Under the pieces are notes generated by a model. That model saw only the letters and a list, made by a program, of their open reading frames with translations. It was not told the origin of the DNA and did not search any database. Position numbers and translations under genes: made by a program. Shown here piece by piece: positions 45,276-60,959 of a stretch of DNA of 64,000 nucleotides; position 1 is the stretch's first letter; every line of letters starts with the position of its first letter. The DNA is taken from sequence record MZ311865.1; one strand, written 5' to 3'. The DNA is from Escherichia phage vB_EcoM_LNA2.

Positions 45276-45736
45276 TAGTAAAGGTCCTCAGAGTAAAGTT
45301 CTTTTTCATTACCACCACGTTCAATACGTACTTGTCCAGCGTAAGTTGCAATAATCATTGCTTCTTCACGTGTCCAATAATTACTATATTGGTCAATAAA
45401 CCCTTGGTCATCATCACAAACTTGTTGAGTAACTAATTGAGGTTTAACTACATCTAAAACTTCTGCCATATCTTTAGAATAATGACGAGCACCTGGAATA
45501 ATAAGAGTTCGTCCATCTTTTAATTTAAAACGGTTGGCTGCACAGACAATTCGTCGTTGATACTTTTGGTTTTCATCCCAATACAAAGTCTGCCAACAGA
45601 TTTCAGGAACTTCATCTAAAACATTTTGTTCTGTATATTCACCACCGTAAGAAGCTAATTTAGCAGCCAAACTTTCCGGAGTCTCACGAGATAAAGCTTT
45701 ATCTAACAGAGCTAAACGTTCTTTAAAAGTTTTCAT
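45275..45736 (-). CDS. hypothetical protein
   Basis: 153-aa ORF. Confidence 0.45.
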
Positions 45737-46083
45737 TTAAACCATCCTTTAATACGTTGCCACAAAGTTTTCTGCTGAGCTTTGTTAACACCAATCGAAC
45801 GAATAACCGGTTGTGACTGCTGATATTCTTTATAATCTTCTTTATAGATTTCGTAAGCTGCATCAACAAATGAACTGATCGCTGCCATGTAGTTTTTACG
45901 AAGGCCAAATGGCGCGTCATTATTTTCACGAATAACCGTATATTGGCCTGCTTTAATCTTTACAATTGTCCCTAAATAAGCCCCGTGGTACCAAATATCC
46001 CATCCTTCCTGAGTAGGTTCTGCACATTTACGAAGTTCGTTAATAATATTCAGCTTATTCATTATGTATTCCTCACAGTACAT
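45733..46083 (-). CDS. hypothetical protein (motA.1 position)
   Basis: 116-aa ORF; a second track ORF 45723..45929 in another frame is embedded and rejected. Confidence 0.4.
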
Positions 46084-46705
46084 TAGTTACAAGGGTAATG
46101 ATTTCTTTGGACACATTAGGGAAGTCAATGTAAGTATATTTACCACCGATCTTAATCTTAACATCATTTTCAAGAGAAGTAAACAGCTTTGATTCAGTTT
46201 CTGACATGTTGTATGCAAAGATTCTAAGAGCGCCATCTCGACGAATTTCAATTTGGCGAATGCCTAGAACTCGTTTAGCGAATCGAACTTCTAAGTTACT
46301 ACGGTTTTCACCAATTTCTTTAACTTCAACTTTATCTTTAATATTTTCAAAAACAAAGTTTGCTAATTCATGCATTTCAGGAGTAACTCCACGTGCTTTT
46401 CTAGTGTTACGTTTCTGAAGAAGTTCTGGAGCATTTTCTTTGGCAAAGAGGTCTGCAGCTTTTTGGATAATATCCATTGCTTCGCCTGTTGCTACAAGTC
46501 CATCACCGGATTTTTCGACTAAACCTTTCTTAATCAATACACCAATGTTAGAGTTAACAACTGATGCATTGTATTCCGCTTCCAGAGCTTCACGGACATT
46601 GGCAGCAGTGGTGAAGTTGTTCTTAATGATATAAACCATTATTGCAGCAGTTTTTTCATTCAGAGCGTTTTCAGAAGCTTTGATGATGTAAGTAACTTTA
46701 GACAT
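46073..46705 (-). CDS. motA: middle-transcription activator MotA
   Basis: 210 aa (T4 MotA 211 aa); N-terminus MSKVTYIIKAS... and conserved NSNIGVLIKKGLVEKSGDGL block. Confidence 0.9.
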   Translation of the reverse strand: MSKVTYIIKASENALNEKTAAIMVYIIKNNFTTAANVREALEAEYNASVVNSNIGVLIKKGLVEKSGDGLVATGEAMDIIQKAADLFAKENAPELLQKRNTRKARGVTPEMHELANFVFENIKDKVEVKEIGENRSNLEVRFAKRVLGIRQIEIRRDGALRIFAYNMSETESKLFTSLENDVKIKIGGKYTYIDFPNVSKEIITLVTNVL

Positions 46706-46742
46706 TTTATTTCTCCAAATTAGTATTTGTTTTGATAGGTCT

Positions 46743-46771
46743 ATAATATCATGTTTGAAGCAAAAGTAAAC
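46743..46771 (-). promoter_or_regulatory. early-type promoter cassette for motA (copy A of duplicated element)
   Basis: Minus-strand GTTTAC-17nt-TATTAT; contains TGCTTCA (MotA-box-like) in the spacer. Confidence 0.5.
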
Positions 46772-46780
46772 TTTATTTTG

Positions 46781-46800
46781 GGCTCTTTTTCCAAAAGCCC
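46781..46800 (-). terminator. hairpin after ORF 46810..47025
   Basis: GGGCTCTTTT...AAAAGCCC imperfect inverted repeat. Confidence 0.35.
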
Positions 46801-46809
46801 TGGTAAAAT

Positions 46810-47025
46810 TTACAAACTCATTTCTTTAATAAGGCCAATAAGTTTTGCCTTTTTAGAACGAAGCTTTTCTAAACGATGTCCATTTGAACCGCGAACCACT
46901 AAAGAATTGATTTCAACTTCTAAGAAATTTAATTCTTCAACAAGTGCTTTACGGGGAGCATTCATACCAGGTTTAACTTTACCAAAACGAGTAGTTGTGT
47001 TTTGGGTTAATTTCATTTTAGACAT
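46810..47025 (-). CDS. hypothetical protein (52.1 position)
   Basis: 71-aa ORF with the same leader and first codons as motA. Confidence 0.45.
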   Translation of the reverse strand: MSKMKLTQNTTTRFGKVKPGMNAPRKALVEELNFLEVEINSLVVRGSNGHRLEKLRSKKAKLIGLIKEMSL

Positions 47026-47064
47026 TTTATTTCTCCAATTTGGTTGTTTTGTTTTGATAGGTCT

Positions 47065-47093
47065 ATAATATCATGTTTGAAGCACATGTAAAC
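47065..47093 (-). promoter_or_regulatory. early-type promoter cassette (copy B of duplicated element)
   Basis: Minus-strand GTTTAC-17nt-TATTAT, duplicate of the motA promoter. Confidence 0.5.
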
Positions 47094-47118
47094 TGTTTTG
47101 TGAGAAAAATGCACAAAA

Positions 47119-47134
47119 GGGAGCCGAAGCTCCC
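47119..47134 (-). terminator. UUCG-tetraloop hairpin after gene 52
   Basis: GGGAGC-cgaa-GCTCCC on plus strand. Confidence 0.55.
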
Positions 47135-47210
47135 TAATCATGTTTGTCCAACCAATACAGCCAAATCACTAGTGCAGCTATTGCACCGAGAAATCCTAAG
47201 GCTAGGGCAC

Positions 47211-48536
47211 TCAAAGTGCCTCCAAGTCTTTAGTGTACTCTGTCACAACATCGGTAGACTTCCAATACTCATTTTCTTCTTTCTTAGCTTTAGCTTCTTC
47301 GGCTAGTTTACGTGCTTCATCGGAAGTGATATGGAAGATGTTAAGACCTACCAGTTTATCGACATGTTCTTTATACATTTCTATTTGTGCTAGCTCTTCA
47401 GTCAAAGCTTTACGAGTCTTGCCCTGAATCACAATTTCACCGTTGATAACTTTTTTGATGAAGTGTGCCTTAGCAAAAGCCAGTTTAAATGCTTTTTCAG
47501 ATTCAAGGATTTTGTTGTCAATACGTTTCTGAACGTAAGTCTTACGGACTTCAACAAAATCTTTGATTAAGTCCACTACGTTATCGTAGACAGCTAATTT
47601 ACCCTTTTCATTAATCACTGTGATGTTTTGTGAACGACGTTCGATGAGACTAAAATCTTTCATGATTTTTTCATGACGTAGCTCTTCATCATCAGGAAGC
47701 GAGTACTCTTTACGGAACTTCACCTTAAACCCAAAGCCGTGTTCACCACAATCATCTTCCCATGAGATTAGACCTTTGTCTTCCAACGGGTCAAGAACCT
47801 TACTCACATACGTTTCACGGTCGAATTTATATGGGATTTCAGTTATCTGCATTTGAGTGCGAGATGTGAACTTATACGTTCCGTGAATCTCATAACGCCC
47901 ATCAACTTCATGTACTTCACCACGGAATTCCGGGAATTCAACTTTTGGCTTAGTGACATTTTTACCTTGAAGAGCTTGTAATACAGCCTTTTTTACCGAT
48001 TTAAAACTATGAGGCAGAATATTTGTTGCGTAACCGGTTGCAATACCAGAGACGCCATTCAAAAGAACTGTCGGAATAATAGGAAGATAGAATTTTGGTG
48101 GAATGTGTTCTTTATCTTCATGAGCTGGAGCATATTCAGTATCTTTATATACGTTATAGAAATTTTTACTTACACGAGCAAAAATATAACGAGATGCTGC
48201 AGCTTTTTGGACTGTTCTAGAACCAAAGTTGCCTTGGCCATCTAACAGTGGATAGTTGTTGTTCCATGTGTTAGCCATCAATGCACCTGCATCTTGTGCA
48301 GAAGATTCACCATGGTGATAACCTAAATCTGCAACACCGCCTGCAATTGACGCAAGTTTATGAAATTTTTCTTTATTACCACGAGCCAAATCTAACGCAC
48401 GATGGACCACAAAACGTTGAACCGGCTTAAATCCATCAATCATGTTTGGGATTGCACGGTTTTCAACGGTGTACATCGCATATGCTAAGGCTTCGTTATC
48501 AATAATACTTTTTAGATTACGAGAATTCAATTGCAT
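47211..48536 (-). CDS. 52: DNA topoisomerase II medium subunit gp52
   Basis: 441 aa (T4 gp52 442 aa); type II topoisomerase A-subunit-like. Confidence 0.9.
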   Translation of the reverse strand: MQLNSRNLKSIIDNEALAYAMYTVENRAIPNMIDGFKPVQRFVVHRALDLARGNKEKFHKLASIAGGVADLGYHHGESSAQDAGALMANTWNNNYPLLDGQGNFGSRTVQKAAASRYIFARVSKNFYNVYKDTEYAPAHEDKEHIPPKFYLPIIPTVLLNGVSGIATGYATNILPHSFKSVKKAVLQALQGKNVTKPKVEFPEFRGEVHEVDGRYEIHGTYKFTSRTQMQITEIPYKFDRETYVSKVLDPLEDKGLISWEDDCGEHGFGFKVKFRKEYSLPDDEELRHEKIMKDFSLIERRSQNITVINEKGKLAVYDNVVDLIKDFVEVRKTYVQKRIDNKILESEKAFKLAFAKAHFIKKVINGEIVIQGKTRKALTEELAQIEMYKEHVDKLVGLNIFHITSDEARKLAEEAKAKKEENEYWKSTDVVTEYTKDLEAL

Positions 48537-50143: not shown

Positions 50144-50173
50144 ACTATATCATAGTCCTACTTAGTTGTAAAC
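50144..50173 (-). promoter_or_regulatory. early-type promoter cassette with hairpin around -10
   Basis: Minus-strand GTTTAC-18nt-TATAGT; stem TAGGACT/AGTCCTA encloses the -10. Confidence 0.5.
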
Positions 50174-58773: not shown

Positions 58774-58801
58774 AATATTCTCCTCTTGTTTTGATAGGTC
58801 T

Positions 58802-58830
58802 ATAGTATCATAGACCATAGTTGTTGTACA
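58802..58830 (-). promoter_or_regulatory. early-type promoter cassette with hairpin around -10
   Basis: Minus-strand TGTACA-17nt-TACTAT; palindrome GGTCTAT..ATAGACC around the -10. Confidence 0.45.
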
Positions 58831-60929: not shown

Positions 60930-60959
60930 ATTATACTCCAACCATCCTTGGTTGTAAAC
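60930..60959 (-). promoter_or_regulatory. early-type promoter cassette
   Basis: Minus-strand GTTTAC-18nt-TATAAT with CCAAGG-centred stem in the spacer. Confidence 0.5.

Follow-up and report, generated by a model that had tools for sequence, protein, structure and literature searches.

Why should motA, which encodes the middle-mode transcription activator, share its promoter, its leader and its first codons with the small gene that precedes it? The question arises from a 64,000-nucleotide stretch of Escherichia phage vB_EcoM_LNA2 (MZ311865.1; hereafter the window), a Mosigvirus (RB69-like T-even phage) in which positions 45700-47400 match many Mosigvirus genomes at 97-98% identity. Every gene in this region lies on the minus strand, in the order gene 52, a 71-amino-acid open reading frame (ORF71), motA and an arn.4-like gene. 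Gene 52, the upstream neighbour of ORF71, is the conserved left edge of a variable slot, and motA is its conserved right edge. It is very likely, in our view, that the two repeated segments are tandem early expression cassettes of the promoter-early stem-loop (PeSL) type, that they bracket ORF71 as an accessory gene in the gene 52-motA slot, and that the unit they delimit is excised or inserted by homologous recombination.

How much do the two segments share? Minus-strand positions 46697-46772 and 47017-47094 align at 91.0% identity over 78 columns, with 5 mismatches and one 2-nucleotide gap that falls in the leader (blastn-short, E=3.5e-22 within the 64-kb window); MAFFT and a repeat search (families D1 and D2) agree. 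The repeat period is 322 nucleotides at the -35 hexamer and 320 at the ATG. Two blocks are perfect, one of 37 nucleotides (TGCTTCAAACATGATATTATAGACCTATCAAAACAAA) that spans the spacer, the -10 box and the first transcribed bases, and one of 22 nucleotides (TTGGAGAAATAAAATGTCTAAA) that spans the Shine-Dalgarno (SD) sequence, the ATG and codons 2-3. Codon 4 is where the similarity breaks off on the 3' side; at the other end it stops immediately 5' of the -35 hexamer. The initial annotation of this DNA had described two near-identical copies at about 46695-46775 and 47015-47097, with some 90% identity, and the alignment confirms them. It had also read a promoter, a leader, a ribosome binding site and the codons MSK in each, which the alignment and the reading of the individual sites bear out, and its placement of the transcriptionally upstream copy before the 71-amino-acid ORF (46810-47025) and of the downstream copy before motA is correct.

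Could this likeness be limited to the generic promoter consensus, the one outcome against which the initial annotation had set its proposal? We compared the 11 early-promoter-like minus-strand sites of the window all-against-all over 78 nucleotides. The motA/ORF71 pair is 87.5% identical, versus a mean of 59.9% (standard deviation 4.8, maximum 74.1%) for the other 54 pairs, and this comparison rules out the consensus as the sole source of the similarity.

The natural variation of the locus follows the repeat. We measured the spacer between gene 52 and motA in 22 Mosigvirus-like loci, Dhakavirus JS98 and T4. It is 504-507 nucleotides long in nine Mosigvirus loci that carry ORF71 (the window, ATK47, NBG1, SHSML-52-1, AlbertHofmann, APCEc01, Mizar, ECCR664 and LF82-3) and 185-188 nucleotides long in 12 that do not (RB69, JM10, mar005P1, phiE142, TH58, NRG-P0074, AV109, moha, phi25-307, SQ17, PNJ-9 and one IMG/VR contig), a difference of one repeat period; the spacers of JS98, T4 and the mosaic HY126 measure 530, 276 and 211 nucleotides. 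In the phage collection as a whole, ORF71 is present at an amino-acid identity of at least 80% in 76 records, and 155 Mosigvirus-like records have a match of 90% or more to the RB69 junction. About 79 of the 155, RB69 included, thus lack ORF71, a figure obtained by subtraction of two separate searches. A comparison with homologous loci was the check that the initial annotation had proposed, and its suggestion that direct repeats of this size are substrates for recombination is supported by natural genomes that lack exactly one unit together with ORF71 and have their junctions inside the repeat.

Presence and absence are found among close relatives. The species Mosigvirus mar005p1 of the International Committee on Taxonomy of Viruses contains both states (NBG1 and APCEc01 with ORF71, moha and mar005P1 without), and genomes of the two kinds interleave in neighbour-joining trees of both flanks. 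The resolution of these flank trees is low, too low for independent losses or gains to be counted. The two-copy state and both types of single-copy junction, described below, are represented among three metagenome contigs. None of the sampled genomes showed a tandem duplication of ORF71. Searches of IMG/VR returned only two loci with MotA as the query and none with the exact 36-nucleotide core pattern.

The single-copy junctions fall into two classes. In the majority (type I: JM10, TH58, SQ17, moha, others and the metagenome contig L033), the promoter and the leader (AAAACAACCAAATT) are of the upstream type as far as ATGTCTAAA, after which motA follows; this places the crossover in the 22-nucleotide SD-ATG block. 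In type II (RB69 and the metagenome contig L031), the upstream terminator and -35 flank are joined to a motA-type leader (AAATACTAATTT), and the crossover lies in the 37-nucleotide promoter block. The existence of two classes therefore implies that the copies exchanged sequence on two or more independent occasions. The lone copy of mar005P1 also shares private variants (GTTTACTTTT and AGTATAAACC) with the upstream copy of APCEc01.

The two copies also appear to have exchanged sequence without loss of the unit. In Dhakavirus they are identical over 41 nucleotides, their leaders differ, and ORF71 begins with MNK. Only in Mosigvirus does the identity run on through the leader and ATGTCTAAA, so that ORF71 begins with MSK (MNK in the other genera), as motA does in every genome inspected. 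Because the MSK start of ORF71 is confined to Mosigvirus, the simplest reading is a conversion tract in the Mosigvirus ancestor, with the motA cassette as donor and the ORF71 cassette as recipient. Genus-specific substitutions are found in both copies (CTTTAAAC and GATACTAT in Dhakavirus versus CTTCAAAC and GATATTAT in Mosigvirus), and so is a species-specific one, TTATGC in VR5 versus TTCTGC in JS98.

Across three T-even genera, the gene 52-motA slot occurs in three states: empty, with ORF71, or with an unrelated 75-amino-acid ORF. The Dhakaviruses JS98, VR5 and Bp7 share the order gene 52, small ORF, terminator, promoter, ORF71, hairpin, promoter and motA. In T4 and most Tequatroviruses the slot is empty and there is a single promoter. 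The Tequatroviruses Manna and UoN_LDJ77_1, however, carry an ORF71 with 94-97% nucleotide identity to the Dhakavirus gene, next to a motA that is 98% identical to that of T4 and 67-68% identical to that of Dhakavirus. As a Dhakavirus-like ORF71 here adjoins a T4-like motA, sequence comparison identifies the ORF71 of these two phages as a recent lateral transfer. The right-hand junction of the import lies inside the motA-proximal promoter, the sequence being identical to JS98 through GTTTACTTCTGCTTTAA. The promoter ahead of ORF71 in Manna is the T4 motA promoter, which corresponds in position and sequence to the ORF71-front copy in both phages. The incoming ORF therefore takes over the resident promoter, and the hairpin and the second promoter arrive with the cargo. 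NBG2 and at least seven other Tequatroviruses have the unrelated 75-amino-acid ORF in the slot. In NBG2, the only one of them read at the sequence level, a degenerate version of the ORF71-type hairpin and a JS98-type promoter come after this ORF (MKFKIENEIV..., 552-779 of locus L030).

The initial annotation had suggested that the 71-amino-acid gene was captured on a copy of the motA promoter cassette. In spirit this stands, as the hairpin and the motA-proximal promoter travel with the inserted ORF, as they do at the 75-amino-acid ORF of NBG2. The details do not. By position, the copy ahead of ORF71 corresponds to the lone motA promoter of T4 and of most single-copy Mosigviruses, and only in Mosigvirus does the repeat reach through the leader and ATGTCTAAA, which is best explained by later conversion from motA.

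What are these cassettes built to do? Their parts are given in Table 1. Both copies place GGAG 8 nucleotides ahead of the ATG, and both have ATGTCTAAA after the SD sequence. Their -35 boxes, which read GTTTACA and GTTTACT, fit the T-even type TTTACW-N17-TAYWAT, and A/T-rich stretches (UUUUGUGCAUUUUUCUCACAAAACA and AAAAUAAA) stand ahead of them. Each copy is preceded by a hairpin. The one after gene 52 has a stem at 47118-47135 that is palindromic and folds on either strand; the 51-nucleotide minus-strand segment that contains it folds at -15.7 kcal/mol (z=-3.6), and the annotations of ATK47, NBG1 and NRG-P0074 record it as a terminator. The hairpin after ORF71 lies in a 43-nucleotide segment that folds at -12.2 kcal/mol (z=-2.5). 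One of its stem pairs forms a compensatory series, A-T in JS98, G.T in VR5 and G-C in Mosigvirus, and the structure is probably an attenuator or a 3' stabiliser more than a strong terminator. The A-rich leaders fold no better than shuffled sequence (-0.6 kcal/mol for that of copy B), and for this reason a riboswitch or attenuator reading of the leaders was dropped; Rfam gave no match at E<=1 for positions 45900-47400.

The ribosome-binding region GGAGAAAUAAA is found in both copies. T4 motA mRNA is a good substrate of RegB, for which the RegB/S1 consensus is GGAGRAYARAA (Durand 2006, PMC1702504). Like that mRNA, the window copies have GGAG and an A-rich run in an unstructured leader, and GGAGAAAUAAA fits the consensus at 9 of 11 positions, the mismatches being at positions 7 and 8. 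We infer that RegB may cleave here in the window phage.

These parts stand in the same order as in the PeSL cassettes known from T4-type phages, which comprise a stem-loop, an A/T-rich stretch, an early promoter, an SD sequence and an ATG (Arbiol 2010, PMC2839356; Comeau 2014, PMC4122927). In RB49 and phi1, PeSLs have been shown experimentally to act as promoter and terminator and to give rise to mini-circles, the crossovers falling between the -10 box and the ATG (PMC2839356, PMC4122927). The window cassettes share with them the sigma70-like early promoter (of the T4/PST type given above), a conserved extent of about 80-100 base pairs (bp), tandem copies round a small ORF of unknown function, crossovers between the -10 box and the ATG, and close relatives that lose, gain or replace exactly the flanked ORF. 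The pair has the promoter spacing, the upstream stem-loop, the A/T stretch with SD and ATG, and the tandem arrangement round a variable ORF by which PeSLs are recognised. The natural deletion junctions at gene 52-motA would be the expected reciprocal products of mini-circle formation. Three features differ: one of the flanked genes is the conserved regulator motA and not another ORFan, the pair is far more alike than typical PeSL pairs, with homology that enters the coding sequence, and no U-run follows the hairpin downstream of ORF71. Elements of this kind, and their mechanism, have already been described for RB49/phi1, T4/PST and KVP40/nt-1, where the gene 52-motA locus and Mosigvirus are not covered. 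We found no earlier description of such cassettes for Mosigvirus, Dhakavirus or this slot in the searchable literature, and the two PeSL papers (PMC2839356, PMC4122927) mention neither motA nor RB69.

We propose the following working model. Each cassette, consisting of hairpin, A/T-rich stretch, T-even early promoter, leader, GGAG SD sequence and start codon, would give its own gene a strong immediate-early transcription start, as its anatomy suggests, and would supply an identical, unstructured, A-rich and RegB/S1-like ribosome-binding region. With the same type of promoter and the same binding region, ORF71 and motA should switch on and shut off together. As the hairpin after ORF71 has no U-run, it probably also passes some upstream transcription into motA. 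Comparison of the genomes shows the 76-78-bp direct repeat to be a substrate for phage homologous recombination: a crossover in either perfect block removes or inserts exactly one 320-322-bp unit with ORF71, which in formal terms amounts to a mini-circle being excised or integrated. Gene conversion, as non-reciprocal exchange, keeps the copies alike, and in Mosigvirus it probably carried the motA homology on into ORF71, as far as the third codon. The ORF71 module has also moved between genera, into a slot bounded by the same kind of cassettes.

Other familiar processes resemble parts of this model. Deletion between short direct repeats and Campbell-type integration likewise lose or gain exactly one period, place the junction inside the repeat and leave a hybrid repeat behind. 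Here, however, the repeat is itself an expression signal, so that every product appears to keep both neighbours correctly expressed, and the events should therefore be selectively tolerable. Integron gene cassettes also use a fixed slot for alternative small, promoter-dependent ORFs, probably through circular intermediates. The gene 52-motA locus has no integrase and no attC or attI site, the homology is the promoter itself and the variable crossover positions point to general recombination, so that the resemblance is an analogy only.

Several observations weigh against the model. Within Mosigvirus most private variants are confined to one copy (ATK47, Mizar, APCEc01), which suggests that conversion is occasional on that time scale and not constant, and the genus-level conversion signal amounts to a handful of sites. 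The interleaving of genomes in the poorly resolved flank trees could reflect ordinary recombination of co-infecting phages and not many independent events. Efficient recombination in T4 is reported to need about 50 bp, and the perfect blocks of 37 and 22 bp are shorter, so that events should be rare per infection. Mini-circles and deletion within populations are predictions of the model. The promoter, terminator and RegB roles in the window phage are read from consensus and folding, and the fit of GGAGAAAUAAA to the RegB/S1 consensus is incomplete. Finally, loss and gain in Mosigvirus cannot be told apart from the junctions: excision and integration are mirror images, and junctions alone give no direction.

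This last point leaves room for a history in the opposite sense, in which the single-cassette state is ancestral in Mosigvirus, a Campbell-type integration of a circular module of ORF71, hairpin and promoter created the repeat, and the genomes without ORF71 never had the gene. We regard this as a possible but distinctly less likely course of events. It would leave identical junctions, insertion is explicitly allowed by the PeSL model, the slot is empty in T4 and most Tequatroviruses, and a recent gain is clear in Manna and UoN_LDJ77_1. Yet the nucleotide divergence between Mosigvirus and Dhakavirus is about 30% for ORF71 and about 22% for the adjacent motA, by which ORF71 appears to have been in the lineage about as long as its neighbours and not to be a recent import from any sampled donor. 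Moreover, the synteny and the hairpin are common to both genera, and the two junction types imply that at least one event was a deletion from a two-copy genome. On the strength of these divergences we favour, with moderate confidence, a long residence of ORF71 in the Mosigvirus lineage, from which it would have been repeatedly lost.

Alternatively, the cassette could be the target of a specialised enzyme, for example a homing endonuclease or a recombinase, and T-even phages do have many homing endonucleases. This is improbable: crossovers fall at two or more places within the repeat, and at yet others in other genera, and the 320-bp unit carries no nuclease or recombinase gene, ORF71 being modelled as a helical hairpin of only 71 amino acids. 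More improbable still is that selection holds two promoters alike without any recombination between them. Both genes would be immediate-early, and elements of the T-even early-promoter consensus (GTTTAC, TG-TATTAT and, where the transcript begins, AGNCCTATCAA) are seen again at other promoters of the window. However, the pair stands almost 6 standard deviations above the other early-promoter pairs, including spacer and leader positions with no known consensus; lineage-specific substitutions are found in both copies of a genome; and the identity enters codons 2-3 of an unrelated protein in one genus only. The exact-unit deletions with junctions inside the repeat already contradict this explanation. 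Although short-read assemblies can collapse direct repeats, it is hardly credible that the ORF71-free genomes are such collapsed assemblies, given a 78-bp repeat below typical read length, a unit of merely 320 bp, some 79 independent single-copy records from many laboratories (among them RB69, presumably a record of the Sanger-sequencing era), two distinct junction types and metagenome contigs in both states.

Having returned to recombination between PeSL-type cassettes as the preferred explanation, what can be said of the cargo? ORF71 is a real gene under purifying selection, as judged from a ratio of nonsynonymous to synonymous substitution rates of 0.19 versus JS98. Its product is basic and matches phrog_6200, a family of unknown function, at 1.6e-39. 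A Pfam scan gave no domain, and its eight clusters among 5.8 billion proteins carry no functional annotation, the sole one with a named source being a hypothetical protein of an E. coli phage (C6). An AlphaFold2 model (predicted local distance difference test score, pLDDT, 76) predicts a disordered basic N-terminus and a generic two-helix hairpin. A Foldseek search of the model against the PDB returned nothing at E<=0.001, the best matches being designed helical hairpins. Because it shares the motA cassette, ORF71 is probably expressed immediately early, in parallel with MotA. In ECCR664 (locus L024) only residues 1-68 of ORF71 are matched (87% identity) and an additional A stands in the upstream leader, which could reflect either decay of this copy or a poor assembly.

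Table 1. Features of the gene 52-motA region and of the two cassettes (positions are those of the window)
Feature	Position	Strand	Basis or remark
Gene 52, DNA topoisomerase II medium subunit	47211-48536	-	ORF list; gp52 annotation in ATK47, RB69 and T4
Possible 26-amino-acid hydrophobic ORF	47134-47214	-	TTG start overlapping the gene 52 stop; translation LSALALGFLGAIAALVIWLYWLDKHD
Intrinsic-terminator-like hairpin, GGGAGC-UUCG-GCUCCC and U-rich run	47100-47135	-	Stem-loop part of the upstream cassette
Repeat copy B, early expression cassette before ORF71	47017-47094	-	Alignment and promoter reading
Copy B, -35 GTTTAC	47088-47093	-	Followed by a 17-nucleotide spacer
Copy B, TG-extended -10 TATTAT	47065-47070	-	Followed by a 39-nucleotide leader
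Copy B, GGAG SD sequence	47034-47037	-
Copy B, ATG	47023-47025	-	Then TCT AAA
ORF71, 71-amino-acid basic protein, cargo between the repeats	46810-47025	-	ORF list
Hairpin after ORF71, GGGCUUUU-GGAAA-AAGAGCCC, 8 bp	46780-46800	-	Then AAAAUAAA, no U-run; stem-loop part of the motA-proximal cassette
Repeat copy A, early expression cassette before motA	46697-46772	-	Alignment and promoter reading
Copy A, -35 GTTTAC	46766-46771	-	Followed by a 17-nucleotide spacer
Copy A, TG-extended -10 TATTAT	46743-46748	-	Followed by a 37-nucleotide leader
Copy A, GGAG SD sequence	46714-46717	-
Copy A, ATG	46703-46705	-	Then TCT AAA
motA, middle-mode transcription activator	46073-46705	-	Pfam and PHROGs matches
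arn.4-like gene	45733-46083	-
Partial third copy, -10 and initial transcript, before another small early ORF	58786-58811	-	25 of 26 nucleotides (ATGATAcTATAGACCTATCAAAACAA); blastn-short

The motA product matches PF09114 (MotA_activ, the activation domain, 1.4e-38) and PF09158 (MotCF, the C-terminal DNA-binding domain, 2.2e-08), both over the curated cut-offs, and phrog_1345 at 1e-89. Between gene 52 and the first promoter, the possible hydrophobic 26-amino-acid ORF occupies the position of motA.1 of T4. It has no annotation in the Mosigvirus loci with feature tables that we inspected. T4, with its one cassette, has the 49-amino-acid motA.1 in this place, and JS98, VR5 and HY126 have an ORF of about 34 amino acids. 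The plus-strand 105-amino-acid ORF at 46751-47068 and the minus-strand 42-amino-acid ORF at 47013-47141 were set aside as mechanical ORFs across the promoter and ORF71.

It is tempting to speculate further that the gene 52-motA slot is a dedicated cross-genus landing pad, with the cassette as a quasi-attachment site kept recombination-competent by recurrent conversion and the cargo swapped as circular modules among Tequatrovirus, Mosigvirus and Dhakavirus. We consider this doubtful. Were it true, the cargo (ORF71, the 75-amino-acid ORF or none) would be co-expressed and co-shut-off with MotA, it would consist of host- or defence-specific accessories or of modulators of the early-to-middle switch, and the nearly even presence and absence (about 50:50) in Mosigvirus would reflect fluctuating selection and not neutral loss.

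The locus offers a clean natural-history case of promoter-leader cassettes as recombination joints of T-even genomes: one small region beside the essential motA displays genomes with both copies, exact-unit deletions of two classes, a cargo that was replaced, a cargo that crossed between genera and what appears to be conversion into coding sequence. Our view of the mechanism stays as it was; work on PeSLs had already put it forward and demonstrated it in part. The locus is an ordinary, if well-documented, instance of a known form of phage gene shuffling. ORF71 (phrog_6200) is dispensable in about half of natural isolates yet under purifying selection, which makes it a reasonable candidate for an accessory gene, for instance in host range or defence. 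The slot is also an obvious site for engineered insertions with immediate-early expression. Annotators should expect the 320-bp polymorphism and should not 'correct' it.

Further variation was seen at this locus in individual genomes. The loop of the hairpin after gene 52 is polymorphic, reading GGGAGC-TTCG-GCTCCC in most genomes and GGGAGC-CGAA-GCTCCC in JM10, RB69, NBG1 and LF82-3 (loci L005, L011, L019 and L025), which looks like an inversion of the loop within the palindromic stem. The mosaic HY126 (locus L018, 1379-1591) has a small ORF and terminator (AAGGAACCTTCGGGTTCC) of the Dhakavirus type fused to a promoter, leader and motA of the Mosigvirus type, and the sequence identifies it as another recombination joint, directly upstream of the -35 box. 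The cassettes that flank the 75-amino-acid ORF of NBG2 have a 23-nucleotide leader block in common (CTATCAAATAAATGAACTGAAAC) and differ in their promoter cores. In Bp7 (locus L027) motA, at 1022-1613, is annotated as two coding sequences (1022-1231 and from 1231 on), which suggests a frameshift or a sequencing error.

Elsewhere on the minus strand of the window, many early promoters have a 6-9-bp inverted repeat that brackets the -10 box (58786-58811 and the promoters with -35 boxes at 50173, 49661, 30054, 21197 and 15068), for example TAGGACTA..TAGTCCTA, GATAGGG..CCCTATC, GGTACAGGT..ACCTGTACC and GGTCTAT..ATAGACC. The motA/ORF71 promoter pair is without such a repeat. Stem-loops that overlap the -10 box have been mentioned for the PeSLs of RB49 (Arbiol 2010, PMC2839356). 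After the motA/ORF71 pair, the most similar promoters of the window, over the same 78 nucleotides, are those at 60959 and 60401 (558 nucleotides apart, 74%) and at 50173 and 49661 (512 nucleotides apart, 73%). Each of these minus-strand pairs brackets one ORF, of 164 and 87 amino acids respectively, and they are likely to be further tandem PeSL pairs.

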